DNA from: a virus
Lineage: Duplodnaviria > Caudoviricetes
Direction: 5' to 3' (one strand)
Length of the DNA stretch: 64,000 nt
IMG/VR virus record: IMGVR_UViG_3300037067_024922
Span: 1-64,000 of that record
Of the stretch, positions 32,870 through 57,744 are shown piece by piece (the first letter of the stretch is position 1; the number at the start of each line of letters is the position of its first letter). Position numbers and translations under genes: made by a program. Below the pieces are notes generated by a model. That model did no database searches. It was not told where the DNA came from and saw only the letters and a list, made by a program, of their open reading frames with translations.

Positions 32870-33676
32870 ATGATCAAGTTTGGTCTGATAGGCAATGGTA
32901 AGATTGCGCAACGTCATAAAAATGCAATTAAACATGTTGGTGGTGAATTGGTATGGGTGAGTGATCCATTGTTAAAAGGACAAGAATTGATTGATGGGAC
33001 CATATATCAAGGAGATATTCCTTTGTGTGATATGAAAGGATTAGAAGGAGTTTGGGGCAACCAAATAGATTATGTTGTCATCTGTTCTCCGACATATCTC
33101 CATCGTCAGCAGACACAAGAAGCCTTGAAATATAATAAGCAAGTCATTTGCGAAAAGCCTCTCTGCTTACCTTGGGAGCCATTGATTGATGATGATAGGA
33201 TCAATGTATGTCTACAGTTGCGCTACATTGAAAATCTTCCCAAGGCGGCAGATCTTGTCAGGGCGGTGATGGTCAGGGATGAGGAATTTTTCAAGTCATG
33301 GAAGGGAGACCCAAGACAAGCAGGAGGAAACCTGTATGAGTTTTTTATTCATTATATTGATCTTGCCATCTTGCTTGGCGCAGGTTTTGAAGGCAGCGTG
33401 TTGCCGGAAGGGAAGCAAGTAAGGGAAATAATTTTTAACAAAGAGGCTTGTCAAGGGCCAAGTATTTCTCAAAATAAAGAATTTAAGCTGGACATCATGG
33501 CGATTGATATGCAATCCCTTTATAATCGCATGTATGAAGACATCTTGAATGGTGGCGGCATCAAGCCAAAGGATATTTTTTACCTCACCTGGGTGCTGAA
33601 TCAGAACAGCATCAAGCATGGTTTCAGGAAGAGTGGGATTGATAGCCCAATCGTTTTAGGCAAGGAACTGTTATGA
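32870..33676 (+). CDS. Gfo/Idh/MocA oxidoreductase, WbpB/WlbA-like UDP-GlcNAcA 3-dehydrogenase
   Basis: IGNGKIAQRH, ICSPTYLH, ICEKP, LQLRY and KSWKGDP motifs. Confidence 0.85.
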   Translation: MIKFGLIGNGKIAQRHKNAIKHVGGELVWVSDPLLKGQELIDGTIYQGDIPLCDMKGLEGVWGNQIDYVVICSPTYLHRQQTQEALKYNKQVICEKPLCLPWEPLIDDDRINVCLQLRYIENLPKAADLVRAVMVRDEEFFKSWKGDPRQAGGNLYEFFIHYIDLAILLGAGFEGSVLPEGKQVREIIFNKEACQGPSISQNKEFKLDIMAIDMQSLYNRMYEDILNGGGIKPKDIFYLTWVLNQNSIKHGFRKSGIDSPIVLGKELL

Positions 33677-33915
33677 TCAGCGATAAAGAGCTTACAACCG
33701 AAATGATGAAAATCATCGAGTCAGATGAGAGGTTGCGCACTGCTCGTAGAATATGTCACGATCTTCTCGGTTTTATACTTCATTTGATCAACCCCATATT
33801 GAAGCAAAGAGGATTTCCAGAGTGCGTTGTAATTGGTATCTCCGTATTTATTCCTAACAAGGACACTAAAAAATCAGATGAGGTCATTGTTCAAGGACCT
33901 TCAACAATACAATAA
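33673..33915 (+). CDS. Hypothetical protein
   Basis: Translationally coupled ORF. Confidence 0.45.
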   Translation: MISDKELTTEMMKIIESDERLRTARRICHDLLGFILHLINPILKQRGFPECVVIGISVFIPNKDTKKSDEVIVQGPSTIQ

Positions 33916-33969
33916 AATAGACGCAAAATTCCTGTTTAGGGATATAATATATTTGGAGAGGTGAGATTA

Positions 33970-34548
33970 ATGAAAGTTCCTGATGCATATATTTGCCCAG
34001 ATTGTGATGAAGTTTTTTCCTTTATAAGGACACCATTATCAAATCCGTCCCCTATTTGTCCGATCTGCGGTAATACGAACCTTTTGAGTCTTGGAAAGGT
34101 TCTCAACCGTAAGGAGGTCAAAAATGAAGATACTAACAATTTCTGTATCGGTGTTCTTGTTAGGGATTCAGATTCTTGCCACGGTATTGATTGTGCAACC
34201 TGTGGTGCCCTTGAAAGCCCAAAACAAACTCCAGGCTGCCTCGATCAAAGTGGGGTTGGGAGATCCGGGCGACAAGGTGCTGAAGGCGGTATCAATGGCA
34301 TCAAAGCAGACGGGATTGTCGGAATCGTTTCTTCTATCGCTGATGTACTCGGAATCCTCTTTCGATCCAAAAGCAATATCAAGCAAGCATTATCAAGGAT
34401 TAATGCAGATCCCGCCGAGCAACAACCATCTGCACCAGGAGGAGGATGTGAATACGCTGATCGGTGCGAAAATACTTTTAAGAAAGTTGGATGCCACCAA
34501 GGGGAATATAAGGAGCGCGATTGTTTTGTACAAGGGATGGCCGATTGA
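33970..34548 (+). CDS. Zinc-ribbon protein whose frame stays open through the downstream gene
   Basis: CPDC...CPICG in the first 40 aa; upstream TATAAT and RBS. Confidence 0.45.
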   Translation: MKVPDAYICPDCDEVFSFIRTPLSNPSPICPICGNTNLLSLGKVLNRKEVKNEDTNNFCIGVLVRDSDSCHGIDCATCGALESPKQTPGCLDQSGVGRSGRQGAEGGINGIKADGIVGIVSSIADVLGILFRSKSNIKQALSRINADPAEQQPSAPGGGCEYADRCENTFKKVGCHQGEYKERDCFVQGMAD

Positions 34549-34618
34549 TCACCCCGAAGGGAAAAGGCAAGCCGATAAGGTAATGAGATTGGCAAGGCTT
34601 TTGAAAAAGGAGGCATGA
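34124..34618 (+). CDS. SLT-domain lytic transglycosylase with N-terminal hydrophobic anchor (candidate SAR endolysin)
   Basis: ESSFDPKAIS, GLMQI, N..IGA.IL and A..LY motifs; RBS AAGGAGGT. Confidence 0.85.
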   Translation: MKILTISVSVFLLGIQILATVLIVQPVVPLKAQNKLQAASIKVGLGDPGDKVLKAVSMASKQTGLSESFLLSLMYSESSFDPKAISSKHYQGLMQIPPSNNHLHQEEDVNTLIGAKILLRKLDATKGNIRSAIVLYKGWPIDHPEGKRQADKVMRLARLLKKEA

Positions 34619-38689: not shown

Positions 38690-38735
38690 TGTCGACGCGA
38701 GGCAGATGGTGAACAAAATAGGGGAGACAAATAAA

Positions 38736-39461
38736 ATGAGAGCAGTTTTGATTGGATATGGCGAGGTTGGGAAAGGACTGTACGAAGTTCTTTCTTTCTA
38801 TCACGAGATGGCGATTCATGATCCTGACCTTGAGTATTTGGCGTATGATGATTTTCTTGATCCCGACCTGCTTCTTATTTCCATTCCATACAACGAGAAA
38901 TTTATTGAGGTGGTGGGGAGATATCAATCATATTTTAAGCCAAAAGCGACAGTTGTTTTTTCCTCCGTCCCTGTCGGTACGTGCTCTTACCTTGGCGCAA
39001 TACATTCTCCGATTGAAGGTCAACACGATAATATGGCCAAGTCAATCCGGGCATTCCCAAGATGGATTGGAGGAGGAAGAGATTACTGGGAAATAGATCT
39101 TGCAGTAAATTTCTTCCTTCAAGCAGGATTGAAAATTGTAAGGGTTCAATCGGCGGACATAACAGAGTTCCTGAAACTTCAATCCACCACCATCTATGGC
39201 ATCAACATTGAGTGGGCAAGGTACTGTAAGCAGGTGCTTGATAGTCTTGGGGCAGGTTATGAGATGCTAAAAGATTACAATCGGCATTATAACAAGCTTG
39301 TCATGGAGAATGGGCAATGGGAATATCAGCGTTGCAATCTTGGTCCTCCTCCGGGGAAGATAGGAGGACATTGTGTTCTTCCCAATGCAAAGTTGCTGCA
39401 AAAGGGGTTTGGCCATTCATTTATACAGACGGTTTTGGATCTGAATGAGGCGAAGGAATGA
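38736..39461 (+). CDS. UDP-glucose/GDP-mannose dehydrogenase family protein (short form, WbpA-like)
   Basis: IGYGEVG, SSVPVGT, HSP, E..KL..T and IGGHC motifs; no C-terminal UDP-binding domain. Confidence 0.8.
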   Translation: MRAVLIGYGEVGKGLYEVLSFYHEMAIHDPDLEYLAYDDFLDPDLLLISIPYNEKFIEVVGRYQSYFKPKATVVFSSVPVGTCSYLGAIHSPIEGQHDNMAKSIRAFPRWIGGGRDYWEIDLAVNFFLQAGLKIVRVQSADITEFLKLQSTTIYGINIEWARYCKQVLDSLGAGYEMLKDYNRHYNKLVMENGQWEYQRCNLGPPPGKIGGHCVLPNAKLLQKGFGHSFIQTVLDLNEAKE

Positions 39462-39901
39462 TCAAGGAATTTCAAGGTGAGTACAGATGGCTGAGTAATT
39501 TTTATCCCGTGGCTATACGATTTCAAGGCTGGTTATTTCCTTCGGTTGAACATGCTTATCAATCGGCCAAGTCAGATGACATTCACTGGAAGAGATTCTG
39601 TTTAAATCCTGATGTAAGAGCCGGAGAGGTGAAAAAGAGGTCGCATCATATCGCCGTAGTGCCAGGTTGGCGACAAGGTCGTTTGAAAATAATGGAGGAA
39701 CTTGTAGATCTAAAATATGATCAGGAGCCTTTTAAGTCAAAACTGCTCGCTACGATGGAGGAGCATATACAGGAAGGGAACTTCTGGTATGACACATTTT
39801 GGGGTGTTGATTTGAGAACAGGTCGGGGTGAGAATAATCTCGGCAAGATCATAATGGAGAAGAGACAAAGACTGCAATACGTCTCATCGCAGGAGAGCTA
39901 A
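39458..39901 (+). CDS. NADAR (YbiA) family N-glycosidase
   Basis: LSNFY, SVEHAYQSAK, LLAT, EGN.W.DTFWG and GENNLGKIIM motifs. Confidence 0.92.
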   Translation: MIKEFQGEYRWLSNFYPVAIRFQGWLFPSVEHAYQSAKSDDIHWKRFCLNPDVRAGEVKKRSHHIAVVPGWRQGRLKIMEELVDLKYDQEPFKSKLLATMEEHIQEGNFWYDTFWGVDLRTGRGENNLGKIIMEKRQRLQYVSSQES

Positions 39902-39902
39902 A

Positions 39903-40336
39903 ATGGATGTAAGTTCTGTTAGTAAAAATTCGATTAAAATTTTGGACTTTTTAAAAGGAACAGATCTCAAGCCTGACGAGAAAATCGCCGCTCTTGATGT
40001 CGCATCGGCAACTATCAGGGCTGCTTTGTCCGCAGAAACCTTGAAGATTATGTGTGCAAACATTTTAGGAGGGAGACCGACATGAGCCGTTTGATTTTGA
40101 TGTACCCAATTCCTTTTATTGAGGCCAATTGCATTTATGCCAAGACACAGAGGAAGTATTTGCCTTTGCCTGCTTATCGGCAGGAAGATGGTACGGTGAC
40201 AACTTGCTGGAAGATGGGATTTCTGGAAAGACTGGAAGTCCTGTTATCGGGCAGAGTGTGGTTAAGTGTATCAACCTTTAATCAGCCCTTGCAGCCTTTG
40301 AGAATGATGATCAGGTCCCGGTTTAGGAGCCTGTAA
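39903..40336 (+). other. Two small hypothetical genes (39903-40085, 40082-40336)
   Basis: Coupled ORFs with RBS. Confidence 0.45.
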
Positions 40337-40466: not shown

Positions 40467-41438
40467 ATGAATATAGCAATCATATCAGATTTTAACATTG
40501 GTGGCCAGCCAACAGCATTGATGAGGGCCATCAATAAATACACGGCTCATAAGGCTCGTTGTATCATTGCTTACGATGATGGTTTTCAATACGATAAGGA
40601 TATCATCCTCAATACGCCAGAGGCAAAAGAGGAGGCTGCTGAATGGTGCAGGCATGCTGACTTCTTTCATTTTGGTCGCATGATATTCAACTGGCCGGGA
40701 ATTGATTTTAATACCCTTGTGAATTTTGATAATTGCTGTGTTAAATACTATGGTTCAGAGCTTCGGGATAATTTTGGGATAATCAGGAATTTCCATGAGA
40801 GGACAGGAGTTGTAGCAATCACAGGTACGGATTGGACAATCACCGGGAGATTGCCCAGTTCGTTTTATCATCTTGGTTCTTATTTCACGAAGTATGGGGA
40901 CATGGATGAGAAAGACATCCCTTTGTGTGATCAGGGAGATCTCCTAAGGATTTGTGCGGGCTCTGCCGGATCTCCATTGAAGGGGTATGATTTGCTGCAT
41001 CAGATTCTGAATGAGTCGAAGCAGGATATTGAATGGGAATTTATATCGCAGGTTTCAAATCAGGTCTGTCTTGAGAGGAAGCTGAAACACAATTGCACAT
41101 TTACTTCTGTTCATGGGGGCTGGGGGATCAGCGGGATCGAGAGTATGTATCAGGGGCATGTGGTGTTGAGCTGTCTTGACCCTTGGATAATGTCAATGTA
41201 TCCTGACAATCCAACCATCATTGTAACGAAAGACACCTTGAAGGGGAAGCTGAGGAATATGGCGGCTTGTCCTGAAATGAGACGATTGATCGGTCGGGAG
41301 AGCCGGGAATTCGCAATCAAAAATTTCAGCACCAAGACCATTTTGAAGAAATATCTGTACCTGATTGATCTGATCATGAATAGGAAAAAGTATCTTGATG
41401 GAGGAAGTGTTCCGTCCATCATTTACAATGAGTTTTGA
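40467..41438 (+). CDS. GT-B (GT4-like) glycosyltransferase
   Basis: KG motif, GWGISGIESM..G.VV and RRLIGRESREFA..NFS. Confidence 0.75.
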   Translation: MNIAIISDFNIGGQPTALMRAINKYTAHKARCIIAYDDGFQYDKDIILNTPEAKEEAAEWCRHADFFHFGRMIFNWPGIDFNTLVNFDNCCVKYYGSELRDNFGIIRNFHERTGVVAITGTDWTITGRLPSSFYHLGSYFTKYGDMDEKDIPLCDQGDLLRICAGSAGSPLKGYDLLHQILNESKQDIEWEFISQVSNQVCLERKLKHNCTFTSVHGGWGISGIESMYQGHVVLSCLDPWIMSMYPDNPTIIVTKDTLKGKLRNMAACPEMRRLIGRESREFAIKNFSTKTILKKYLYLIDLIMNRKKYLDGGSVPSIIYNEF

Positions 41439-41448
41439 GTGAGACAAA

Positions 41449-41541: not shown

Positions 41542-41916
41542 ATGAAGAAAGTATGTTTTATGTTTTTGCTTCTCGTGATGGTGTTTGCCATTTTCGCGGG
41601 AACGGTGTGGGGACATAATGCCCCGATTGTCGTTGGCCAGGAGCAGGCCGTTGGTGCCTCTCCGCCCTGTCAGAATAATCTGACAACCTTAACTTATTTG
41701 AGCTCCGAATTTCAGCTGTCGGCACGAGAGTATGTCAAGGTCCTCTCGGCTTCGGCTCTTTCTCCGATGGCCATTGCATATGTGTCCTGTTCTTTGATGA
41801 TAGCAGGATCGCATATTGCAGTCCCCATTTCGAAAGACAATTTATTTTATAGAAATCCAGACCGGCTTCGGGTCGCCTGCGGTGCCTTTAACTGCAACTG
41901 TCGAAACTGTATCTGA
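41542..41916 (+). CDS. Secreted hypothetical protein
   Basis: MKK plus hydrophobic signal peptide; Cys-rich C-terminus. Confidence 0.55.
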   Translation: MKKVCFMFLLLVMVFAIFAGTVWGHNAPIVVGQEQAVGASPPCQNNLTTLTYLSSEFQLSAREYVKVLSASALSPMAIAYVSCSLMIAGSHIAVPISKDNLFYRNPDRLRVACGAFNCNCRNCI

Positions 41917-42022: not shown

Positions 42023-42532
42023 ATGTCATCAATCACAGTACAGCAATCCTCTACCACAGAATCTTCCTGTCCCAAAGATCCAATCATTCATTCCGCTACA
42101 CAAATTTGGCATCCTCATCTTTGCAATATTTATGGCAATTGTATTATAGGCGCTCATTGTAACATAGGTGCTTTTGTTGAAATCGGTCCTGGCGTTATCA
42201 TTAAAGATTGGGTCAGGATTGGAGCCCATTGTTTTATACCAGAAGGGGTTACGATTGAGGAGGATTGTTTTGTTGGGCCGGGAACTATTTTTTGTAACGA
42301 TAGATATCCTCCTGGAGGAAAAGAGGCGTGGAGGCCTGTTCTCGTAAGGAAAAAGGCCAGTATCGGAGCAGGATCGGTTATTCTTCCGGGCGTGGAAATA
42401 GGGGAAGGTGCGATGATTGGCGCAGGGACAGTTGTGACAAGGAATATCCCTGCTGGATGGAGAGTTGTTGGCAATCCGGCCAGAAGAATATTGCCCCATA
42501 TTATGAATTGTGAGAAGGGAGAAATTGTGTGA
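42023..42532 (+). CDS. Left-handed beta-helix sugar N-acetyltransferase (WbpD/WlbB-like)
   Basis: Hexapeptide repeats, FCNDRYP, VVGNPAR. Confidence 0.88.
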   Translation: MSSITVQQSSTTESSCPKDPIIHSATQIWHPHLCNIYGNCIIGAHCNIGAFVEIGPGVIIKDWVRIGAHCFIPEGVTIEEDCFVGPGTIFCNDRYPPGGKEAWRPVLVRKKASIGAGSVILPGVEIGEGAMIGAGTVVTRNIPAGWRVVGNPARRILPHIMNCEKGEIV

Positions 42533-43704
42533 TACCATTCATAAAGCCATATTATGATGACGACGATTTTAATGCAATCAAGCAGGTTCTTCAATCAGGT
42601 TGGGTTGCCCAAGGCCCAAAGGTAGAAGAATTTGAAGAAGCAGCAGCAAAGTATCTTGGCTGTAAATATACGATCAGTGTATCCAATTGCACTACGGCAT
42701 TGACATTGGCTTTGATGGCATTGGAGATTGGGCCGGGAGATGAGGTGATTGTGCCTGATTTTACATTCCCCGCCACTGTGATTGCTGTTACAAATGTTGG
42801 GGCAACTCCTGTGCTGGTCGATGTCAATAGAGAAAATTACAACGTCTCTCCTCAGATGGTGGCTTTGGCAATCACAAGAAAAACAAAGGCCATTATTCCT
42901 GTTCATTTGTTTGGGCTGTCCTGTAACATGCACGAAATAAACAGCTTGGCGAGTACTTATGGCCTCTATGTGATTGAAGATGCCGCCTGTTCTCTTGGTA
43001 CGGAAATAGATGTTTATGGCAGTGAAGACGAGGACCAATTAAAAGCAGGGACAATGAGTGATATAGGCTGTTTCTCTTTACAGGCCAGCAAAGGTATAAC
43101 GACCGGAGAGGGTGGCCTTATTTGTACTAATGATTATGTGCTTGCAGACAGGATGAGAAGGCTATCGTGCTTTGGTGATGAACGAACATTTCGCAGATCT
43201 TTATTCAAACAGATTAATTCTGCGGATGCTCCTTTCTATTTTGATCCCAAGGCAGGCAATTATAAAATGTCTGATATCACGGCGGCTCTTGCTTTGTCGC
43301 AACTGCGCAAGATCGAAAAGATGATAGATTGGAGAATTAAAATTGCCAAAGAATGGGATGAAGTGGTTAATGGAGATCCATTCTTGCGTTCGGTCATCAT
43401 TTCCAAACCGGAGATCATGACAGATCATTCTCATATTTATCAATCATATGTTATGGTCTGCCAGCAGGGAAAACGACCGCTGGTTATGGAGTATTTCAAA
43501 GAGCATGGGTTTCAGACCGGGATTGGAACCCATGCCTGTAGTCGATATCCGAATTTGATGGAAAGACAATCAAAAGGACAAGAAAGATTGCCGCCGATTC
43601 TTGATTGTGGAGTTTCAAATTATCTTTATGAAAATGCAATTTCGCTTCCGAGATATTATGGTCTTGAGGTTTTGAGGGAATGGAAGAAGGCAAAGCTAAA
43701 ATAA
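42529..43704 (+). CDS. DegT/DnrJ/EryC1/StrS sugar aminotransferase (WbpE-like)
   Basis: GPKVEEFE, PVHLFG, IEDAA, FS...SK.ITTGEGG and NYKMSDI motifs. Confidence 0.95.
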   Translation: MIPFIKPYYDDDDFNAIKQVLQSGWVAQGPKVEEFEEAAAKYLGCKYTISVSNCTTALTLALMALEIGPGDEVIVPDFTFPATVIAVTNVGATPVLVDVNRENYNVSPQMVALAITRKTKAIIPVHLFGLSCNMHEINSLASTYGLYVIEDAACSLGTEIDVYGSEDEDQLKAGTMSDIGCFSLQASKGITTGEGGLICTNDYVLADRMRRLSCFGDERTFRRSLFKQINSADAPFYFDPKAGNYKMSDITAALALSQLRKIEKMIDWRIKIAKEWDEVVNGDPFLRSVIISKPEIMTDHSHIYQSYVMVCQQGKRPLVMEYFKEHGFQTGIGTHACSRYPNLMERQSKGQERLPPILDCGVSNYLYENAISLPRYYGLEVLREWKKAKLK

Positions 43705-47993: not shown

Positions 47994-48014
47994 AAAATAG
48001 AATTGGAGAAATCA

Positions 48015-48917
48015 ATGGCAAAGGTTTTGATTACAGGCGGCAAGGGATTTATAGGAAGATATCTGTCCCGTATGATGAGGGCTGAGGGATGGTATGTGGT
48101 AGATGCAGACCATAATGAGCTTGATGTGACAAGGCCGGAAACCTTTGATTGGCTCAGAGGGGCCAACTTTGATGCTATTGTTCATTTGGCCGCCCTCTTG
48201 ATGATCGATGGCAACAAATATAAACCCGTGGACTATTTCAAGGTCAATACCATTGGCACTTTTAATGTGTTGGAGTTCTGTCGCAAAGAAGGGATACCCA
48301 CCTTGATTTATGCAATGACGCACTCGGATGTAAATGCAAGAGGACCCATAATATCTCCTCATTGTGAACATTCATTTGTAACAGGATCTTGGGAAAACAA
48401 CTCTGTCCCTTTTATATCTTCGAAGATTGCTGCTGCCGATATGATTGAATCTTATAGCTTGAGTGGGGTCATTAGGGGGGTTATCCTCCGCTTGGCAAAC
48501 ATCCGGGGATATGGAAGTCGTGATGAGAAATACAATTGTGTGTTTCATCAGTTCATTCAAAAAGCATTGAGAGGCGAGTCGATTGAGATCTGGGGCGACC
48601 CTCCTAAAACAGTCAGGGATCTGATATATGTGAAGGATGTTTGTTCTGCGATTATGGCAGCAATATCGGAAGAATCAGAAGAAGGATATTTTAACATCGG
48701 CTCCGGAGTTGGTTTGACCATTGAGGATGAGGCCAAGGCGATCCTAAAAGTGTTTGGCAAAGAAGGTAGCGGCCTGATTTATCGTTCAGACATTCCGGAG
48801 GTCAGAAAGACCAGTTGTGTTTTTGATACCGGAGAGGCTTGTTTGAGTTTGGGCTGGGCTCCGGAATATGATTATGTTCAAGCAATGATGGATTACAAGA
48901 AAGAAGCCGGACTATAA
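48015..48917 (+). CDS. Second NAD-dependent epimerase/dehydratase with atypical catalytic motif
   Basis: TGGKGFIG, HLAA, RDLIYVKD; YxxxK is replaced by FISSK. Confidence 0.88.
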   Translation: MAKVLITGGKGFIGRYLSRMMRAEGWYVVDADHNELDVTRPETFDWLRGANFDAIVHLAALLMIDGNKYKPVDYFKVNTIGTFNVLEFCRKEGIPTLIYAMTHSDVNARGPIISPHCEHSFVTGSWENNSVPFISSKIAAADMIESYSLSGVIRGVILRLANIRGYGSRDEKYNCVFHQFIQKALRGESIEIWGDPPKTVRDLIYVKDVCSAIMAAISEESEEGYFNIGSGVGLTIEDEAKAILKVFGKEGSGLIYRSDIPEVRKTSCVFDTGEACLSLGWAPEYDYVQAMMDYKKEAGL

Positions 48918-48947: not shown

Positions 48948-50414
48948 ATGAATTTTATACCAGATACAAAAGGGCTTTTTTATGAGAAGCAGAGAAATAA
49001 ATGGGCAATGATTGAAGCTCTCCTTGGAGGAGAGGAGGCAATCAAAGAGGCTGGTAAATTGTATTTGCCGCAATTGTCCGGGCAAACTGAAACACAGTAT
49101 AAGACATATAGAGACAGGGGAAGCTTTTTTAATGCATTCGCAAGGACGATAACAGGATTGACAGGTGCCATAATCCGCAAGGAGCCTTCTATCAAGACAA
49201 GCCCAGAAATTGATAAATCGCTTTCATCGATCACGCTTGCAGGAGAATCAATTCAGGAAGTGATTAGGATGATCACCCAGGAGGTTCTCTCGTATGGATA
49301 TTACGGCATTTTGGTCGATATGCCTTTTGTGGCTGAAGATAAAATATCACCTACCAATACAAATCCGTATTTTGCTTTGTATCCCTGCGCATCGATTTTG
49401 AATTGGGAGACAGTACAGGTTGGTGATGAGTCAAAATTGATTATGCTGACCTTGGCCGAGACTGTTTATAAGAAGGACCCTGAAAATGTTCTTTCCCTTA
49501 TCGCAGTAGATCAGGTCAGGCTTCTTAACATAGACAAGCAAGGTGTTTTGGTTGTAAGTATATTCCAAAAAATTGAGAAGCCAAACAAGCAAGGTGATGC
49601 TGAATGGGTTCAGTATGGAGACGATATTTATCCAAAAGTGAGAGGGAAAAACATGGATCATATTCCCTTTGTCTTTTTTGGGGCAGTATCAAACAATCCC
49701 ATTCCGACTGCACCTCCTTTGGTGGATCTCGCCAATTTGAATATAAAGCATTGGCAAGTCAATGTTGATTATTATCACGGCCTTCATTTTTGTGCAATGC
49801 CGACTCCTTGGGCATCAGGATTTGGCAAGGAAACAGATTTGTATGTCGGATGCGAGAAGGCTTGGGTTTCTGATGATCCTCAAGCGCAGTGTGGGTTCCT
49901 TGAATTTACAGGAACCGGTCTTGGCGCGATAGAAAAAGCATTGGATAAACTTGAGTGCCAAATGGCCATTATGGGAGCAAGGATGCTCGAAGAGCAGAAG
50001 AAGGCAGCCGAAGCGGCAGAAACTGTGGTGATGAGATATTCGGGTGATACCGCGACATTGTCAAGCATCGTTACCTCTGTTGAGCAAGGGGTCATCAAAG
50101 CAATTGATCTGATCGGTGATTGGAAGGGGATTGAAGCAAAGACAGAGGTCAGGATGAATAGAGATTTTGTATCCATCAAGCTCTCTGCTCAGGACATCAC
50201 GGCTCTGCTTCAGGCAAGACAGGCTGGCGAGATCAGCCAGGGCACTTTCCTGTACAACTTGCAGGTCGGTGAGATCCTGCCGCCTGATAGGACAATTGAA
50301 GACGAAAAGGCTTTGATTGAAAACGAATACAATGCCTTTTCCAGCAAGCGTATGTATGATGAGGATGGCAACGAGATTGATGAAAATGGGAACATCATAA
50401 CTCCTGCAGAATAG
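48948..50414 (+). CDS. Portal protein (DUF4055-like)
   Basis: YLP...Y..Y..R..F.N...RT..GL.G, PPLVDLANLN.KH and FLEFTG motifs; position before MuF. Confidence 0.88.
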   Translation: MNFIPDTKGLFYEKQRNKWAMIEALLGGEEAIKEAGKLYLPQLSGQTETQYKTYRDRGSFFNAFARTITGLTGAIIRKEPSIKTSPEIDKSLSSITLAGESIQEVIRMITQEVLSYGYYGILVDMPFVAEDKISPTNTNPYFALYPCASILNWETVQVGDESKLIMLTLAETVYKKDPENVLSLIAVDQVRLLNIDKQGVLVVSIFQKIEKPNKQGDAEWVQYGDDIYPKVRGKNMDHIPFVFFGAVSNNPIPTAPPLVDLANLNIKHWQVNVDYYHGLHFCAMPTPWASGFGKETDLYVGCEKAWVSDDPQAQCGFLEFTGTGLGAIEKALDKLECQMAIMGARMLEEQKKAAEAAETVVMRYSGDTATLSSIVTSVEQGVIKAIDLIGDWKGIEAKTEVRMNRDFVSIKLSAQDITALLQARQAGEISQGTFLYNLQVGEILPPDRTIEDEKALIENEYNAFSSKRMYDEDGNEIDENGNIITPAE

Positions 50415-50433: not shown

Positions 50434-52830
50434 ATGCCCAAAAAGATACCAAACAAGATCCTTGATGCTACATTGAAAGATACCATCCTCACTGATCGGT
50501 ATGGCGTTGGTCTCAACAGCAAAATTCAATCTCTTCTCAAATCGACCGAGGATGAGATTGTTGCTGCCATTGCGAAGATAGACCCTACTTCGCCGACAAT
50601 GACCAAATGGAAGCAGCAGCGTTTAGAAAAATTACAATCACAGATTTCAGATATCGTCAAGACAGGGTACAAAGATATTTCTTCCTTAACAAGTGGCGAG
50701 CTTACTGCCTTGGCCAAAACTCAAGCCAAAAATGTAGTCAGTAAATTCAACAATGCGGTGGGAGCGGATCTCTTTCAGGTTACGCTCACCCCAGACAATG
50801 TTAAAAGCATTGCCCAAAACACCCTAATCGATGGTGCCACGATAAAGGATTGGTGGAACAAGCAAAGCTCTGATACCCAGAACCGATTAAGAAAGGCGAT
50901 GGCGGCAGGTACTCAGGCTTTACAAATTGGGATGATGCAGGGCGAATCTGTAGGAGATTTAATAGGAAGAATACGGGGCACTGCTTTGACCCCAGGTGTA
51001 ATGAGTATCTCCAAGCGAGAGGCGACAGCCCTTGTCAGAACCAGCGTCATGCAGGTTGCCAATGTAACGAGGCAGGAGACGTACAAGGCCAATGCCGATG
51101 TGTTGGATGGATTTGAATTCATCGCCACTCTTGACTCAGCTACCTGTCCTCGCTGTCGGGTCTATGATGGGAAAAAGTACGATATGGATATGCAGCCGAT
51201 TGGGCATGAGCTTCCTTTCCCGGGGACTCCCGTTCATTTTAATTGCTTAATTGATTATCAAGTACCTGTTTATACTTTAAAAGGATGGAAGCCAATCGGT
51301 GAAATTGAAAAAGGAGATTTGGTTTTAACTCATAAAGGCAGATTTAGAAAAGTAACAAAATTGATTTTTGCTCACAGCCAACAACCAGAGGTCGTTAAAT
51401 TTTCTTTGGAAGGATTGGGTTGGAGGAATAATTTAACGATAACAGAAGATCATCCTGTTATGATTAATGGGAAATGGTGTCCAGCTAAAGATATAAAAAG
51501 TGGAGATAAAATTTTGTTTTTATCTCATAAGTGCGGAAGGAAAGAATGTCAGAAACAAATTCCTTATTTTAGGAAATATTGTAGTTTCTCTTGCCGTTCT
51601 AAAGAAATGGTTCCAGGAACTTGGACTGATGAGAGAAGAAAAAGTGTTTCAATTAAAAATAGTGAATCCAATCTTAGGCAGTATGAATCGGGATTAAGAG
51701 ATGCAAAAAAAGGAACTGCTGCCGCGAATATTAAAACAAGACAAATGGTAGCTGATGGAATTCATCCTTTTCAGAGAAACGATGTTAAAGAAAATTCTAA
51801 AAAACGAAGACATAGTGAAAAATGGAAAACCAGCATCCATCAATATATGACGACAAGAAATCCAAGTTATAACCCGGAATTTGTGGAAAAACAAAGAAAA
51901 TCAAGAGAAGCAACAATGCTTGCCCATCCTGAACTTCACCCAAATGTTATAATGGCTCAAAAAGGTTTTATGAGTTCTTTGGAAAAAAAGATGCAATTGG
52001 TTTTGGATAATCTTGGGATTGATTATATTAGACAATGCCCTATTGGCCGATATTTTGCAGATTTTGCAATTCCAGATTTGATGATTGTTATTGAGGTTGA
52101 TGGTATTTTTTGGCATAAGGATACTAAAGACAAAGATTTAAGGAGACAAAAAATTCTTGAAAAAATGGGATGGCAAGTAGTAAGATACGATGATAATCAA
52201 TTATCAAATATGTTATCTGTTCAAGAAGAGCTTAATCGACTATTTGCAAATCATGAAGGGAAATATGAATTTACCGAATTTGAAGTTTCAGTTATAAAAA
52301 AGTGGAAGGTTAGAAGGCCTAAAAGACTTTATAATTTCAGTGTAGAGGAAGATGAAAGTTATATTGTTCAAGGGTTTGTTGTTCATAATTGCAGGTGTAC
52401 CACCGCGCCAATCACAAAATCATGGGCTGAATTGGCAGGGACAGATTCTCCCTTATCAAAGAAACAATTGGGGATTCTTGACAGCATCCCGGTCGGCCAA
52501 CGATCATCGATGAATGGACAGGTAAGCGGCAATGTAACATATAATGAATGGCTCAAATCTCAACCTGTCGATATCCAGCAAGAGATCCTTGGTCCTGGGA
52601 AATTCAGGCTGTGGTCTGAGAATAAACTTGATATGGTGGATCTTGTCAACAACAATGGTAGCCCATTGACGATTAAAGAATTGCAGGCCAAATTAGGGAC
52701 TGGTGTTACAACAAGCAGAGCAGAGTTGGTCAAAGAAGCAGAGAAGATAAAAGCAACCAATGAATCGCTTGTCGCTGTTGATAAAGAGCGAGTGGCCGAT
52801 TTCATTGGTGATTGTTTTGTGATGGAATGA
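50434..52830 (+). CDS. MuF/SPP1 gp7-type minor head protein containing an intein
   Basis: ATLD..TC..C...DG, PVHFN/CRC split by the intein, TYNEWLKSQP...Q.EILG. Confidence 0.9.
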   Translation: MPKKIPNKILDATLKDTILTDRYGVGLNSKIQSLLKSTEDEIVAAIAKIDPTSPTMTKWKQQRLEKLQSQISDIVKTGYKDISSLTSGELTALAKTQAKNVVSKFNNAVGADLFQVTLTPDNVKSIAQNTLIDGATIKDWWNKQSSDTQNRLRKAMAAGTQALQIGMMQGESVGDLIGRIRGTALTPGVMSISKREATALVRTSVMQVANVTRQETYKANADVLDGFEFIATLDSATCPRCRVYDGKKYDMDMQPIGHELPFPGTPVHFNCLIDYQVPVYTLKGWKPIGEIEKGDLVLTHKGRFRKVTKLIFAHSQQPEVVKFSLEGLGWRNNLTITEDHPVMINGKWCPAKDIKSGDKILFLSHKCGRKECQKQIPYFRKYCSFSCRSKEMVPGTWTDERRKSVSIKNSESNLRQYESGLRDAKKGTAAANIKTRQMVADGIHPFQRNDVKENSKKRRHSEKWKTSIHQYMTTRNPSYNPEFVEKQRKSREATMLAHPELHPNVIMAQKGFMSSLEKKMQLVLDNLGIDYIRQCPIGRYFADFAIPDLMIVIEVDGIFWHKDTKDKDLRRQKILEKMGWQVVRYDDNQLSNMLSVQEELNRLFANHEGKYEFTEFEVSVIKKWKVRRPKRLYNFSVEEDESYIVQGFVVHNCRCTTAPITKSWAELAGTDSPLSKKQLGILDSIPVGQRSSMNGQVSGNVTYNEWLKSQPVDIQQEILGPGKFRLWSENKLDMVDLVNNNGSPLTIKELQAKLGTGVTTSRAELVKEAEKIKATNESLVAVDKERVADFIGDCFVME
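51244..52389 (+). mobile_element. Intein (382 aa) with a DUF559/Vsr-like homing endonuclease
   Basis: Starts CLIDY...GWKPI.EI..GDLVLTH, ends YNFSVEEDESY...VVHN followed by Cys; internal DF...IEVDG.FWH; AT-richer than its flanks. Confidence 0.92.
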
Positions 52831-53561: not shown

Positions 53562-53574
53562 AAAAGGTGATTAA

Positions 53575-53889: not shown

Positions 53890-53933
53890 TATCAGCATTC
53901 TGTTGGCTGTAAAAATAAACGGTTGTGATGAAG

Positions 53934-53969
53934 AAATATCTTTTATTTTGTAAAAATAACAATTATAAT
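53934..53969 (+). promoter_or_regulatory. AAATATCTTTT-N19-TATAAT promoter for scaffold and capsid
   Basis: Copy of the recurrent motif. Confidence 0.7.
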
Positions 53970-54002
53970 CACCTTAACAAAAAACCGGGAGGAGGAAAAT
54001 AT

Positions 54003-54770
54003 ATGGCATTGAAGTTGGTTATCGACAAGTTGGAGGACGTTGCGGAGGGTCTTCGCGATCAGTATAAGCTGGCCGGAGATGGCAAATTTCACCTTCAAAC
54101 AGACGAGGACATGGAATCCAAGAAAAAGATCGAGGAGTTCCGAACCACCAATATCACTTTGATGAAGAAGCAGAAGGAGTTGGAGGATCAGCTGAAGGAT
54201 CTTGGCGATCCAAAAGAGATCGTGGCCATGAGGCAAAAGATCCAGCAGATCGAAGACAAAAAATTGATCGAAGCCGGGAAGCTTGATGAACTCGTTGAGC
54301 AGAAGGTTGAGCGGATGCGGAACGATTTCCAAGCCCAGCTCGAAGCCTTAAAAAAGGCAAACGAGACCAAGGAGGCCGAGCTTCAGAAAACCACCGCCAG
54401 ATTGTCTGAAGTCCTGATTGATTCGGAGATCACCAAGGCCGTGACTGCTGTGGGCACTGTTCGGAAAGACGCCATGCAGGATATTATCTCCAGAGGGAAG
54501 AGGGTATGGCGGCTCGAAGATGGCAAGCCCATTCCAAAAGATGGGGACAAGCTCCTGTTTGGCAAGGACGGGAAAAATCCTCTGACATTTGAGGAATGGG
54601 CAATGATCCTTTCTCAGACAGCCCCGTTTCTATTTGAAACGACAACCGGTGGCGGCGGGACAGGTGGTCAGCATCAGGATCTTTCTAAAGGCAAGGAGGA
54701 TCTGTCAAAGATCAGTCCTGAGGAAAGATTGAAAAGAATCCATGAGAGGCAAGACCAGAAGAAGGCATAA
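54003..54770 (+). CDS. Capsid scaffolding protein
   Basis: MALKL...Y....DGKF.L, long coiled coil, APFLF...GGG tail; precedes the capsid gene. Confidence 0.85.
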   Translation: MALKLVIDKLEDVAEGLRDQYKLAGDGKFHLQTDEDMESKKKIEEFRTTNITLMKKQKELEDQLKDLGDPKEIVAMRQKIQQIEDKKLIEAGKLDELVEQKVERMRNDFQAQLEALKKANETKEAELQKTTARLSEVLIDSEITKAVTAVGTVRKDAMQDIISRGKRVWRLEDGKPIPKDGDKLLFGKDGKNPLTFEEWAMILSQTAPFLFETTTGGGGTGGQHQDLSKGKEDLSKISPEERLKRIHERQDQKKA

Positions 54771-55009
54771 GAAGCAGACATAACTTCCTATCACATATCT
54801 TTGCGGCGCGAAGCGATCTGATGGGAAGAATCCATGAGAGGTAGGTATGATAAAAGGCTCGGTGAGCCGAAAGAGTAAATAAAATTAGTTTCAAAGCGGA
54901 GCAGCGAAACGAGATCCCGGTGGGATTTAACCTTAATTGGTTTTATTCTGCCGGGATTTTTGTTTGCGGAGAATGAACCAGAAAATTCAAGAATAGGAGG
55001 TTGGAAAAA

Positions 55010-55948
55010 ATGGCACTGACACTTATCGAAGCTGCAAAAGAAGCATTGGGAAGGGATGAAGATCTTCAGGCGACAGTCATGCAGCTGTTTGCAAAAAACA
55101 GCGATGTTCTGTTGAACATGCCTTTTGAAAACATCCAGGGGAATGCACTCAAGTTCAACAGGGAGAAAATGCTTCCTGGGGTTGCATTCAGGGGCGTAAA
55201 CGAGGCCTACACGGAAAGCACCGGAGAGCTCGAGCCGGTCGTTGAATCTCTGGCCATTGCCGGAGGCGATCTGGATGTCGATGTCTTCTTGGTGAAGACC
55301 GGTGGGGCCAACCAGCGAGGGACTCAGGAAGGGCTCAAGATCAAGGCTTTGTCCCTGAGTTTGACAAAAGCGATGATCAAGGGAGATGTGACCTCTGATC
55401 CGAAGTCCTTCGATGGATTGCAGGTCCGTTGTACCGGAGATCAGCTCATCGAGTCATCGGCAACCACGATCTATGCAGCTTTGTCTCTGGCCAAGCTGGA
55501 CGAGACAATTGACGCGGTGGAGGATGCGACCCATCTGCTGATGAACAAGACAATGCGTCGGTTGCTTTCGGCAGCGGCCAGAAGCGCATCTGTCGGTGGG
55601 TACATCACCTACGATCTGGATGCATTCGGTCGCAGGGTGACGCGATACAATGATCTTCCGATTATGATCGCGGACAAGGATGAGGACAACTCGGACATCA
55701 TGGCCTTTGACGAGCTTGGTCCTTCGACCTCAACCAAGGCGACATCAACTTCCATTTACTGCATCAGCTTTGCACCGAATGGGGTGATGGGGCTTCAGTC
55801 CTCGCCGATGGATGTCAGGGATCTCGGAGAGCAGCAGGATAAGCCTGTCTACAGGACGAGGGTTGAGTGGTATCTCACTCTCGGAATGTTGCGGCCACGT
55901 GCTGCTGCTCGGCTGCGTGGGATCAAGAATACCACGGTGGCGGTGTAA
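55010..55948 (+). CDS. Major capsid protein
   Basis: MALTLIEAAK, LP.VAFR.VNE.Y, FDGL, SIY, YRTRVEWY, AARL.GI. Confidence 0.9.
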   Translation: MALTLIEAAKEALGRDEDLQATVMQLFAKNSDVLLNMPFENIQGNALKFNREKMLPGVAFRGVNEAYTESTGELEPVVESLAIAGGDLDVDVFLVKTGGANQRGTQEGLKIKALSLSLTKAMIKGDVTSDPKSFDGLQVRCTGDQLIESSATTIYAALSLAKLDETIDAVEDATHLLMNKTMRRLLSAAARSASVGGYITYDLDAFGRRVTRYNDLPIMIADKDEDNSDIMAFDELGPSTSTKATSTSIYCISFAPNGVMGLQSSPMDVRDLGEQQDKPVYRTRVEWYLTLGMLRPRAAARLRGIKNTTVAV

Positions 55949-56012
55949 TCATCATCTTTTGGTGGTGATCTTGATTTTGTTTTATAAAAAATAACAGAAG
56001 GAGGTATCAGAC

Positions 56013-56495
56013 ATGTTGGATAATAGGAAAGTGATCATCGATGATGAATTGCTCATCGCGGATACCGGCTCGGCGGCAATCGATGCCACGGCGGCGGCAA
56101 CAGTTGATGCTGTGGCCAAGGTCATCGACACCGGTGGCGGTCTTACAAAAGGGATGTTTGTTGTTGATGTTGCCTCTATCGCAGGTAGCGGTCAGGCAAC
56201 CAACTGCCAGCTGATCCAGGTGGAGCTGGAAGGATCAACGACAAGCACATTTACGGCATGGGTTCGGCTGGCGGGATTCCGGCTCGGGCCAGTGGCTGTC
56301 GGCCATGGAAGACAGTCCGCGGATGCTTCGGCGGCATCGTCCACCACCGGTCGTTATATGACGCCGTTCCATAACGACTTCCACGGTACGGTGTATCGTT
56401 GGCTGAGGGTTTATGTAACCTTCAATGGATCGGCAAACGCTGCCGTTCAGACTCCGACAATCAAGTTCAAGGCTTGGCTGTCGAAGTTGTCATAA
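56013..56495 (+). CDS. Capsid decoration/cement-like beta protein, Ala/Thr/Ser-rich
   Basis: Follows the capsid gene; YRWLRVY beta motif. Confidence 0.65.
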   Translation: MLDNRKVIIDDELLIADTGSAAIDATAAATVDAVAKVIDTGGGLTKGMFVVDVASIAGSGQATNCQLIQVELEGSTTSTFTAWVRLAGFRLGPVAVGHGRQSADASAASSTTGRYMTPFHNDFHGTVYRWLRVYVTFNGSANAAVQTPTIKFKAWLSKLS

Positions 56496-56514
56496 GGAAA
56501 GGAGCAAGCATACA

Positions 56515-57744
56515 ATGAAAACCGGGATTTTATTGTCAGCCTGCATGATAGTAAAAAATGAGGAGAAAAATCTTGAGCGATGCCTGAAGTCGATTAAGAA
56601 ATTGGTCGATGAGATCGTGGTGGTGGATACCGGCTCAACAGATCAGACCGTGTCGATAGCAAAACATTTTGGAGCACGGGTCTACCATCACGAGTGGCAA
56701 AATGATTTTTCTCTTCATCGTAACCAGGCAATCTCTTATGCTCAAGGTCGGTGGGTAATGACGATCGATGCAGATGAGGAACTCGTTTTGGAAAACAATG
56801 TGGACAACAAACAGATCCGGGAATTTCTCAGATCAATGGATAATCGATATCCTGCTGTGTGTATTACTTTCCATGATATCCAGAAGGGGAGCGATATTCT
56901 CCAATTCAACTCTGCCCGGATTTTTCGGAGAGGCTTAGTTGAATACAAAGGGATGGTTCATAATCAGCCAACATTGAAGATCGAAGGGAACTCGGTCTTC
57001 TGTCCGGGAATCCATTTGAAGCATTACGGATACGATCTTACGCCAGAGCAGAAAGCGGCTAAATTTGAAAGGACGCATACCCTGCTCATGAAGCAGATCG
57101 AGACCGGCCAGATGGACGATATGCTCCCATACTTTTTCCTGTCCCAGCTTTATGCTGACAATCAGCAGATTCATGAGTCGGTGGCTTGGGCGGAGAAGTA
57201 TTGGGAGAACAAAGACAAGATTGAAAAGAGCCATTTTTGTGACTCTGTTTATTTCACCACAACCAGACAATACATGAAAATTGGAGATCGTGATAAGGCA
57301 TATGAATGGTTGACCAGAGGGATTGCGGCTCTTCCTGGCGATCTGGATATGGCTCTTATTGCTCTTGAGTTTGGAGTTTGGACAAAAAATACTGACCTTC
57401 AAATTCAGGCCTGCAAGGATTTCCTTCTTTCATATAGCCTGTTTCAGAAGAATCCGATGATGAAGGGTAACAGATTTGTCTATGCATTAAGACCAGAGGC
57501 ATTGGCTTATGTCTACCTTCATCAGACGTTGTCGCAAATAAAGGACGGAACTCAGGCGCTGATGAATTTGATGAAGCTGATCCCGAGCCTGCACCCTTCT
57601 TATGGCCAAGGGATGATGAAGACCTTAGAAGAGGAGCTTTCAACCTCAGCATTTCCTGTTCATTTTGTAAAAGATTTGGCGGAGAGTCCGGTGGGAGATC
57701 TAAAGGACAAGAAAGAAAATTTTGTATCGTCAACAATTCATTGA
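56515..57744 (+). CDS. GT2 glycosyltransferase with TPR-like helical C-terminus (protein-glycosyltransferase type)
   Basis: SACMIVKNEE..L.RCL, VDTGSTD, W.NDFS..RN, IDADE, VHNQ and HYGY motifs. Confidence 0.9.
   Translation: MKTGILLSACMIVKNEEKNLERCLKSIKKLVDEIVVVDTGSTDQTVSIAKHFGARVYHHEWQNDFSLHRNQAISYAQGRWVMTIDADEELVLENNVDNKQIREFLRSMDNRYPAVCITFHDIQKGSDILQFNSARIFRRGLVEYKGMVHNQPTLKIEGNSVFCPGIHLKHYGYDLTPEQKAAKFERTHTLLMKQIETGQMDDMLPYFFLSQLYADNQQIHESVAWAEKYWENKDKIEKSHFCDSVYFTTTRQYMKIGDRDKAYEWLTRGIAALPGDLDMALIALEFGVWTKNTDLQIQACKDFLLSYSLFQKNPMMKGNRFVYALRPEALAYVYLHQTLSQIKDGTQALMNLMKLIPSLHPSYGQGMMKTLEEELSTSAFPVHFVKDLAESPVGDLKDKKENFVSSTIH

Follow-up and report, generated by a model that had tools for sequence, protein, structure and literature searches.

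What might a phage make with sugar-biosynthesis genes lodged among its packaging and head genes, and to what would the product be attached? The window analyzed here (64 kb) is the first part of a complete 92.8-kb genome (∼93 kb) of an uncultured phage. The original prediction held that this phage glycosylates its own virion. We favor the same answer, glycosylation of virion proteins by a phage-encoded system, and judge it somewhat better than an even bet. Genes were assigned to families by Pfam, NCBIfam and PDB sequence searches, with profile comparisons and Foldseek used where these failed. By these assignments, the genome encodes about ten soluble rare amino-sugar enzymes plus a protein-type GT2. 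Thus the predicted gene set is real, although several of the identities had to be corrected. The sugar region and its boundaries are as follows:

28162–29544, + strand: large terminase, the upstream boundary (Pfam Terminase_6N, E = 3.9e-7)
32786–33676, + strand: Gfo/Idh/MocA oxidoreductase, WbpB-like (PF01408, E = 3.7e-14; best PDB match WbpB, E = 5.8e-12)
38706–39461, + strand: truncated UDP-sugar 6-dehydrogenase (UGDH)-like protein, 251 aa (profile and fold)
40052–40336, + strand: 94-aa protein accompanying the cluster (copies 44–48% identical beside the cluster in relatives G002, G003 and G004)
40467–41438, + strand: soluble GT-B (GT4-like) glycosyltransferase (profile and Foldseek)
42023–42532, + strand: left-handed β-helix N-acetyltransferase, 3-amino-sugar class (Hexapep, E = 7e-22)
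42529–43704, + strand: DegT/DnrJ/EryC1 PLP-dependent sugar aminotransferase (PF01041, E = 7.6e-91)
44134–45075, + strand: extended SDR 1 (PF01370, E = 2e-59)
45068–46285, + strand: WbmS-like deacetylase fused to an LpxD-like N-acyltransferase (PF22537, E = 2e-35, plus Hexapep)
46343–47404, + strand: FemAB-family (GNAT-fold) transferase (PF02388, E = 4e-11)
48003–48917, + strand: extended SDR 2, atypical (PF01370, E = 2e-38)
48948–50414, + strand: portal protein, the downstream boundary (DUF4055, E = 2.6e-36)

The sugar genes do lie between terminase and portal, as described originally, but this interval also holds ∼10 kb of unrelated ORFs (an SLT lysozyme, NADAR and unknowns).

WbpA, WbpB, WbpE and WbpD of Pseudomonas and WlbA, WlbB and WlbC of Bordetella define the route to UDP-2,3-diacetamido-2,3-dideoxy-glucuronic acid. 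The phage set resembles this route in its Gfo/Idh/MocA protein, a candidate nucleotide-sugar 3-dehydrogenase, its DegT aminotransferase and its WlbB/QdtC-class 3-N-acetyltransferase, and also in a WbmS-like domain, the family of which is named after a Bordetella O-antigen gene. The first three of these enzymes were correctly named in the original prediction. Top PDB matches of the acetyltransferase are FdtD (4mzu), 7s3u, QdtC and WlbB (E = 5e-26 to 4e-18), all of which act on 3-amino sugars; given this, and given WbpB as the best match of the oxidoreductase, a 3-amino route is indicated. The evidence falls short, however, of identifying the sugar specifically as UDP-GlcNAc3NAcA. The counterpart of WbpA is truncated, SDR1 resembles enzymes that form 4-keto intermediates, and the DegT protein, present in single copy in the genome, is no closer to WbpE (E = 9e-45) than to 4-aminotransferases, scoring better against ArnB (2.8e-50) and perosamine synthase (1e-46). 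Moreover, the extra phage enzymes (two SDRs, the deacetylase-acyltransferase and the FemAB-like protein) imply another final sugar, and the lipid-carrier assembly of the Wbp/Wlb systems is missing.

The 6-dehydrogenase belongs to its family by profile and fold but is a short form, in which the Rossmann domain and central helix are present and the C-terminal UDP-binding domain is absent. PF03721 has no match anywhere in the genome, this protein included, and the Atlas look-alikes bear PF00984. In the PDB, its profile matches UDP-ManNAc dehydrogenase (E = 1.2e-5), and its model (pLDDT 93.5) aligns with the N-terminal and central parts of UGDH-family proteins with query-normalized TM-scores of 0.71–0.78. 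GxGxxG, E154, K157 and GGHC are invariant. The predicted GT4 is likewise GT-B/GT4-like by profile (TreT and PglA, E = 1.7e-4) and by fold (model pLDDT 91; PimA, PglA and BshA, E = 5e-11 in Foldseek), but it is divergent and has no Pfam match. Seven homologues of this GT-B bear Pfam TPR domains, N-terminal to the GT-B in their alignment, which we read as pointing toward protein substrates.

Two SDR epimerases had been predicted, and two extended SDRs are indeed present. SDR1 carries Ser-Ser-Glu and YxxxK, as do 4-keto-forming decarboxylases and dehydratases, rather than plain epimerases, in the PDB alignments, and probably forms a 4-keto intermediate; its NCBIfam matches, dTDP-Glc 4,6-dehydratase and LegB (E = 1e-57 to 1e-58), both fall under the cut-off. 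In SDR2, the catalytic Tyr is exchanged for Phe (FxxxK for YxxxK), a substitution conserved in G000, G003 and G004. Because SDR2 lacks this Tyr and the UGDH-like protein lacks the UDP-binding domain, some parts of the pathway may be nonfunctional or proceed in another way. The deacetylase-acyltransferase fusion is found as predicted in one ORF, with LpxD as its NCBIfam match (E = 1e-37, under cut-off); the deacetylase half is kept in G003 and G004, while the LbH half occurs only in this phage. The FemAB-like assignment stands as well (TIGR03019, E = 2e-19, under cut-off; 42–60% identity in G001–G004), and this protein is a candidate for aminoacyl-tRNA-dependent N-aminoacylation. No family match was found for the 94-aa protein.

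How might these enzymes act together? No nucleotidyltransferase turned up in the scanned ORFs. The pathway would therefore have to draw on a nucleotide sugar of the host, UDP-GlcNAc being the most likely, and the description of the system as self-sufficient was overstated. The WbpB-like oxidoreductase would generate a 3-keto sugar, to be aminated by the sole DegT protein, and the new amine would be N-acetylated by the QdtC/WlbB-class enzyme. Further tailoring could involve the truncated UGDH-like protein, the SDRs, the WbmS-like deacetylase with its fused LpxD-like acyltransferase, and the FemAB-like transferase. We would expect this to yield an N-acylated, possibly aminoacylated, 2,3-diamino sugar, perhaps a uronic acid. 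The SunS/GmaR-like GT2 would then attach this sugar to a virion protein in the cytoplasm, with the cement, capsid and tail tube proteins as candidates, and the GT-B may add or extend a residue. The GT2 gene and the relevant structural genes are:

53925–54770, + strand: head scaffolding protein (phrog_206, E = 2.7e-33)
55001–55948, + strand: major capsid protein, MCP (phrog_212, E = 2.8e-82; PF20911)
56013–56495, + strand: presumed cement/decoration protein, 160 aa (position after the capsid gene, and size)
56515–57744, + strand: soluble GT2 of the SunS/GmaR protein-glycosyltransferase type, with TPR-like tail (PF00535, E = 3e-23)
60513–61922, + strand: tail tube protein (PF18906, E = 3.8e-11)

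A GT2-TPR protein had been placed directly after the capsid and decoration genes. The GT2 and its location are as described, while a TPR identity for the tail is moderately supported (Pfam E = 0.035–0.09; hhalign against a TPR region, probability 87.5%, E = 3.6e-6). Translation likely starts at the Met encoded at 56515, since relatives align only from about residue 28. The motifs DTGSxD and DADE are invariant, and no membrane segment was detected in a hydropathy scan. SunS is the sublancin S-glycosyltransferase and GmaR the Listeria flagellin O-GlcNAc transferase; both modify folded or helical proteins or peptides in the cytoplasm. GmaR (1e-31) and SunS (5e-22) are the best PDB matches of the phage enzyme, and in all three, a soluble GT-A GT2 domain containing DxD precedes a helical repeat domain. 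That the closest characterized relatives of the phage GT2 are cytoplasmic protein glycosyltransferases counts in favor of a virion-protein target. The phage GT2 differs from them in its lineage-specific tail and its gene position within a phage head module, and its donor is presumably not UDP-Glc or UDP-GlcNAc but a rare amino sugar. Although the top NCBIfam model is the SunS family (TIGR04195), the score of 88.8 bits is far under the equivalog cut-off of 350. The SunS resemblance does raise the idea of a small secreted glycocin-type peptide as the GT2 substrate, by analogy with SunS and sublancin of the SPbeta prophage, and a 124-aa ORF (41542–41916) has a signal-peptide-like start and a Cys-rich end. 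We find this idea hardly credible, as that ORF is missing in G001, G003 and G004 and lies 15 kb away from the GT2 gene, which is itself followed by a variable small ORF and then connector genes; in addition, no ABC exporter or thiol-disulfide oxidoreductase turned up in the scanned ORFs.

A target on the host cell must also be weighed, since GmaR acts on flagellin. The sugar could go to a host surface protein (flagellin, pilin or S-layer) or, because host enzymes could use a soluble nucleotide sugar, to a surface polysaccharide via host transferases and flippases. Receptors would thereby be masked, which would keep progeny from being lost on debris or block superinfection. It is well known that phages can change host serotype by means of glycosyltransferases (reviewed in PMC12619734). 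The promoter-like motif GGDTATAATA fits this scenario too. It is found upstream of several genes in the sugar region and of the DNA polymerase gene, and upstream of none of the capsid genes; this distribution suggests that the sugar genes may be transcribed apart from the head genes. Nevertheless, we consider a host target unlikely. A hydropathy scan of the whole 92.8-kb genome showed that 0 of 121 ORFs exceed three predicted membrane segments. Hence, in line with the original prediction, nothing flippase-, polymerase- or polyprenyl-phosphate-transferase-like is encoded, and neither is a membrane transferase or Gtr-like protein. Among the scanned ORFs we detected no integrase, and with a full set of replication genes, this makes lysogenic conversion unlikely. 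The cluster, moreover, sits within the packaging/head region. These data support a soluble, lipid-carrier-free system in which a pathway for a rare amino sugar is combined with a protein-type GT2 encoded in the head module.

If virion proteins are the target, which of them is modified? In mycobacteriophages, the acceptors of virion glycosylation have long Ser/Thr-rich tails. The candidate acceptors here lack such C-terminal tails and show only single clade-specific Thr/Ser positions. One of these, Thr45 of the cement candidate, lies in a DTGGGxTxG loop and is specific to the GT2-positive clade, which makes it a lead only. The predicted decoration role of this protein fits its position and size, but no family match was found; it is kept at the same position in relatives with and without GT2. 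The tail tube protein is a further candidate acceptor by analogy only. According to Freeman et al. (2023), as cited in PMC12619734 and PMC12363180, the virions of Che8, Corndog and Myrna are glycosylated and phage-encoded glycosyltransferases modify the phages' own capsid and tail tube subunits, a modification believed to shield the particle. Our phage differs from these in its capsid-side transferase, a predicted SunS/GmaR-type GT2 with TPR-like tail, and in encoding about nine sugar-tailoring enzymes besides. Giant viruses also encode rare-sugar biosynthesis and transferases and glycosylate their own particles outside the host secretory route, examples being the capsid glycans of chlorovirus PBCV-1 and mimivirus fibril sugars such as viosamine and bacillosamine. 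Those viruses, however, infect eukaryotes, and their capsids are unrelated and their enzyme families different. The phage system is probably a variant on this known theme of virus-encoded virion glycosylation.

Further evidence came from relatives, in which the large terminase is 74–78% identical to that of this phage. All eleven genes (Gfo, short UGDH, 94-aa protein, GT-B, acetyltransferase, DegT, SDR1, WbmS, FemAB, SDR2 and GT2) are present in the complete genomes G000, G003 and G004, of which the last two are relatives. In the complete relative G010, 0 of 11 are present, MCP and cement are retained, and terminase abuts portal. The Gfo gene, for instance, lies immediately 3′ of the terminase gene in G001, is found in G003 and G004, and is missing in G010. 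These comparisons bear on another proposal, that the pathway supplies a donor for a DNA glycosyltransferase and so yields a sugar-bearing DNA base. The region from 4.8 to 10.4 kb does encode a 7-deazaguanine module, with QueD, QueE, FolE, a second radical SAM enzyme and a weak GT-B-like protein (8140–9141). Yet G003 and G004 keep all eleven genes, and neither the 8140 protein nor the 454-aa radical SAM enzyme has a homologue there (blastp and unfiltered HMM searches, best E = 0.067), the entire deazaguanine set is absent from G003, and the two modules lie >22 kb apart. We therefore regard DNA modification as quite improbable.

An MCP-cement-GT2 block occurs in every relative with an MCP at least 62% identical and a locus reaching far enough downstream. 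It is also found on a different backbone, G005, in which no portal, MuF or scaffold was detected. This fixation of GT2 in the block across backbones further argues against a host target. The suggestion that GT2 and the sugar genes are gained and lost jointly is borne out, in that they are together or absent together in the complete relatives. However, because the GT2-positive phages form a single clade on the MCP tree (support 100/100), this co-inheritance is one evolutionary event and not independent replication. Beyond these relatives, the GT2 family occurs at 58 viral loci that are otherwise unrelated; its gene adjoins a tape-measure gene at 11 of them and a terminase gene at 4.

The glycosyltransferase gene of the head operon is flanked by the cement gene on one side and the connector genes on the other. 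Relatives keep this position, and it puts a phage glycosyltransferase within, or next to, the virion structural operon. Family searches confirmed the assignments made in the original prediction for the Gfo/Idh/MocA oxidoreductase, hexapeptide acetyltransferase, DegT aminotransferase, two extended SDRs, WbmS-LpxD-like beta-helix fusion, FemAB-like protein, portal, capsid and GT2, and also identified the scaffold and a Mu F-like head protein. Genes discussed below include the following.

26965-29544: small and large terminase genes
32786-33676: Gfo/Idh/MocA oxidoreductase (Gfo)
38706-39461: short UDP-sugar dehydrogenase (UGDH)-like protein, 251 aa
40467-41438: GT-B glycosyltransferase, 323 aa
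44134-45075: SDR1
45068-46285: WbmS-LpxD-like fusion
46343-47404: FemAB-like protein
48003-48917: SDR2
48948-50414: portal
55001-55948: major capsid protein (MCP)
56013-56495: cement, the presumed decoration protein
56515-57744: GT2

The catalytic domain of GT2 belongs to PF00535 (E 3e-23) and is of the GT-A type with a DxD motif; its DTGSxD and DADE sequences are invariant among 14 homologues. Among PDB structures, GT2 is closest to two protein glycosyltransferases of the cytoplasm, GmaR (1e-31) and SunS (5e-22), and no membrane segment was found in GT2 itself. The best NCBIfam model is that of the SunS family (TIGR04195), yet the score of 88.8 bits falls far below the equivalog cut-off of 350, which is not enough for membership of that family. 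Translation probably starts at the Met at 56515, directly downstream of the cement gene. Pfam detects TPR repeats in the 210-residue tail only weakly (E 0.035-0.09), and PF00535 is the sole domain listed for close homologues; aligned with the TPR region of TPR-GT-B fusion proteins, the tail matches over 85 columns (hhalign probability 87.5%, E 3.6e-6).

A portal search returned three relatives (G001-G003), all of which carry the sugar cluster and GT2. The Gfo gene directly follows the terminase in G001, from which we take the compact ancestral order to be terminase, sugar cluster, portal. The capsid search comprised 80 loci. Every relative with an MCP identity of at least 62% and enough downstream sequence has the cement gene followed by GT2; at identities of 60% or less, the cement gene is kept, GT2 is absent and the terminase abuts the portal gene. 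In complete genomes searched by blastp and unfiltered HMMs, GT2 and the sugar genes are either all present or all absent. G003 and G004 contain 11/11 of the genes (Gfo, short UGDH, a 94-aa protein, GT-B, acetyltransferase, DegT, SDR1, WbmS, FemAB, SDR2 and GT2), and G010 contains 0/11. When the fusion gene was searched by halves with blastp, the relatives' match proved to be to the WbmS half, and the LbH half was ruled out. In the MCP tree, GT2-containing phages form one clade with 100/100 support and a long stem. The pattern thus goes back to one gain or loss event and does not show recurrent co-variation.

The same genomes bear on an alternative destination for the sugar. The genome encodes a 7-deazaguanine module at 4.8-10.4 kb (4846-10382), consisting of QueD, a QueE-like radical SAM protein, FolE, a 454-aa radical SAM protein, a weak GT-B-like protein of 333 aa (the 8140 protein) and a 414-aa protein, so that the pathway could in principle feed the 8140 transferase and yield a sugar-bearing 7-deazaguanine in DNA, as had been proposed. 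However, G003 lacks the entire deazaguanine set, including the 414-aa protein, yet has all eleven sugar and glycosyltransferase genes. G004 has QueD, QueE, FolE and the 414-aa protein but neither the 8140 protein nor the 454-aa radical SAM protein, and it too keeps the eleven genes. Since both phages carry the full set without a homologue of the 8140 protein, the sugar cluster is independent of the DNA module, and supply of a DNA glycosyltransferase becomes improbable. Phages that share the 8140 transferase are represented by three fragmentary contigs only, 5-45% complete.

Modification of the host surface or of host proteins, instead of the virion, is disfavoured on three counts: membrane machinery is absent, no integrase was seen among the ORFs scanned, and GT2 is fixed in the head block. 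On the first count, a hydropathy scan of the whole genome agreed with the predicted lack of a flippase, a polymerase and a lipid-carrier transferase. None of 121 ORFs has more than three predicted membrane segments, and the scan brought up no membrane protein of the Wzx/Wzy, ABC or Gtr type. ORFs with two or three predicted segments encode proteins of 103-151 aa, except for one tape-measure-sized ORF of 1812 aa. GT2 might otherwise glycosylate a glycocin-type peptide, but among the ORFs scanned we found no exporter, and no precursor gene is conserved.

Two patterns beyond the close relatives add weight to virion proteins as the likely targets of GT2. The genome of G005 has only the MCP-cement-GT2 block in common with this phage, with two SDR genes nearby and an otherwise different backbone. 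Of 58 otherwise unrelated viral loci with a member of this GT2 family, 11 have a tape-measure gene and 4 a terminase gene directly beside it, the tape-measure call coming from PHROGs matches for 11 neighbour ORFs across the locus set and not being tied to individual loci. Where the neighbour is a tape measure, GT2 would occupy the usual place of the tail assembly chaperone genes. In L036, L038, L039, L042, L047, L049, L056, L071, L076, L077, L080, L083 and similar loci, an ORF of 110-130 aa is followed by GT2 and then by an ORF of ~800-1,400 aa. In two relatives, L008 (640-1718) and L009 (6389-7470), the stretch from the Mu F-like gene to the scaffold gene holds an additional acetyltransferase-like gene and an additional SDR2-like gene; sugar-tailoring genes are therefore also found inside the head operon proper.

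Which sugar is made can be narrowed in part. The Gfo/Idh/MocA oxidoreductase is a PF01408 member whose best PDB match is WbpB, but because that match reaches only E 6e-12 over residues 29-196, its substrate cannot be assigned. The five best PDB matches of the acetyltransferase (FdtD, two 7s3u/7s43 sequences, QdtC and WlbB) all act on 3-amino sugars, which places the enzyme with the 3-N-acetyltransferases of the WbpD/WlbB class; none of its PDB matches at E < 1e-8 is of the PglD or PerB type. The genome has a single DegT aminotransferase. In combination, the WbpB-like enzyme, the 3-amino acetyltransferase relatives and the lone DegT protein point to amination at C3 by way of a 3-keto sugar, the chemistry of the WbpB/E/D route. 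A pure 4-amino route (4,6-dehydratase, 4-aminotransferase and PglD-type acetyltransferase) was considered but is less likely, given the 3-amino-type acetyltransferase and the conserved WbpB-like enzyme. The ORFs scanned yielded no nucleotidyltransferase, and the pathway must therefore begin from a host nucleotide sugar.

Other signals are less tidy. The DegT protein clearly belongs to its family, and in PDB searches ArnB (2.8e-50) and perosamine synthase slightly outscore WbpE (9e-45). SDR1 has Ser-Ser-Glu; at the matching positions, its closest solved epimerases lack the Glu, and a dTDP-glucose dehydratase has Asp-Glu. Ser/Thr-Glu marks enzymes of the UXS, ArnA and GMD type, which form 4-keto sugars. 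In SDR2, the catalytic Tyr is replaced by Phe in all three complete genomes (this one, G003 and G004). An N-acyl group may be exchanged, and aminoacylation is perhaps added, judging from the deacetylase-acyltransferase fusion and the FemAB-like protein. Given these ambiguities, we go no further than predicting an N-acylated 2,3-diamino sugar, possibly a uronic acid, as the product.

Two of the predicted enzymes exist in unexpected forms. The gene proposed to encode a UDP-sugar 6-dehydrogenase is present, but its product is truncated to 251 aa and lacks Pfam support, PF03721 having no match anywhere in the genome. The model of this protein (pLDDT 93.5) can be overlaid on UDP-ManNAc and UDP-glucose dehydrogenases in their N-terminal and central parts. 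The protein retains the Rossmann domain with GxGxxG, the Glu and Lys of the central helix and an invariant GGHC, which we take to be the catalytic cysteine motif, and it ends there, without the C-terminal UDP-binding domain; it is thus not a three-domain UDP-GlcNAc 6-dehydrogenase like WbpA. Short UGDH-like proteins of ~215-250 aa that end just past GGHC (the protein here and P0085-P0184) make up a sizeable family, mostly viral by Atlas taxa, with some members annotated as UDP-ManNAcA dehydrogenase. Similarly, the predicted GT4 gene is there, and the 323-aa product has a confident GT-B fold with the GT4 enzymes PimA, PglA and BshA as nearest structures, but it is divergent and without Pfam support. 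Seven of its homologues (P0054, P0057, P0058, P0061, P0065, P0068 and P0071; identity 50-56%) have a TPR array of ~140 residues N-terminal to the GT-B, an architecture also found in O-GlcNAc transferase.

The sequence leads to an acceptor are limited to two candidate sites, a clade-specific Thr in the DTGGGxTxG loop of the cement protein and a clade-specific Thr/Ser at capsid position 293, both confounded by phylogeny. Between phages with and without GT2, the cement protein shows only a slight difference in Ser/Thr content. Upstream of the head genes, a promoter-like motif, GGDTATAATA, occurs 6 times in the window against 0.31 expected, always on the + strand and between 29.5 and 41.5 kb.

29567, 31545, 32568, 33940, 38072 and 41477, + strand: GGDTATAATA promoter-like sites (relaxed form also at 11436 and 46315)

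These sites lie ~20-30 nt ahead of the start codons of genes between the terminase and the sugar cluster. The Pol III gene has a related site in front of it, and the capsid genes have none. From this distribution, the sugar genes may have their own transcription timing. Inside the sugar cluster, a 124-aa ORF (41542-41916) has its own promoter-like site; its N-terminus resembles a signal peptide, its C-terminus is rich in Cys, and G001, G003 and G004 lack it.

Glycosylation of mycobacteriophage virions alters the antibody view of the particle. If environmental tailed phages likewise make rare amino sugars and place them on their heads, particle glycans would be a widespread, variable trait, with possible effects on adsorption, stability, aggregation, grazing and defence. 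For the SunS/GmaR family this would mean a new substrate class, for the short UGDH-like proteins common in viruses a testable role, and for protein cage glyco-engineering a set of soluble, lipid-independent enzymes. In the literature searched (WbmS; SunS/GmaR in phages; glycosylated capsids), a SunS/GmaR-type GT2 in a phage head module is not described. Demonstrated virion glycosylation is known only from a few mycobacteriophages. Those phages, as cited in PMC12619734 and PMC12363180, are the nearest documented system, and ours differs in its transferase family, its multi-enzyme rare-sugar pathway and its lack of Ser/Thr-rich acceptor tails.

The sugar genes that accompany MCP-cement-GT2 vary, with the full amino-sugar set here, two SDRs only in G005, and, in L008 and L009, additional genes of the acetyltransferase and SDR types. 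It is conceivable, though we think it improbable, that the block is a mobile 'self-glycosylating capsid' cassette paired with exchangeable sugar clusters, which would create O-antigen-like serotype diversity on virions. Were that so, the truncated UGDH-like protein, conserved in many viruses, may oxidise the sugar after its transfer to protein, not on the nucleotide.

The virus is known from a single IMG/VR record of 92,765 bp (100% complete by CheckV), of which the window is the first 64 kb. Nearly all credible genes are on the + strand, and the phage has its own replication set: a Pol III alpha-UDG fusion, clamp loader, gp32-like and RecA-like proteins, 5'-3' exonuclease, primase and helicases. 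The Pol III alpha protein (11457-14846) has PHP, NTPase and finger domains and a C-terminal domain of the uracil-DNA glycosylase superfamily (residues 977-1110). The search for tRNA genes was negative, no GenBank phage matched 40-58 kb by megablast, and PHROGs gave no useful match for ten ORFs (a 533-aa ORF after the terminase and nine at 34.6-41.9 kb). The nearest MCPs fall in MAG bins of Omnitrophota, Paceibacterota and Sulfuricurvum, probably as mis-binned phage contigs.

The terminase-portal interval also carries ~10 kb of unrelated ORFs, including an SLT lysozyme, a NADAR protein and several unknowns. The NADAR-domain gene (39458-39901) sits between the UGDH-like and GT-B genes; as its G003 homologue is located elsewhere, upstream of the terminase, we place it outside the sugar set. 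At 33961-34618, two long ORFs overlap in different frames and both appear 'conserved' in G001, the SLT lysozyme frame (34091-34618) at 53% identity and the other at 36%. Probably only a short zinc-ribbon gene and the SLT gene after it are real, the remainder of the first frame being open by chance. The Mu F-like head protein (50434-52830) is split by an intein (Hint and intein-splicing domains) that carries a DUF559/MTES_1575 endonuclease, and its alignment to relatives is limited to ~270-370 residues. From the Mu F region to the scaffold gene, several relatives have ~8 kb, compared to ~1 kb in the window; in G003 (L004 11422-19015), this interval encodes a 1,020-aa Mu F fusion and a 1,500-aa ORF.
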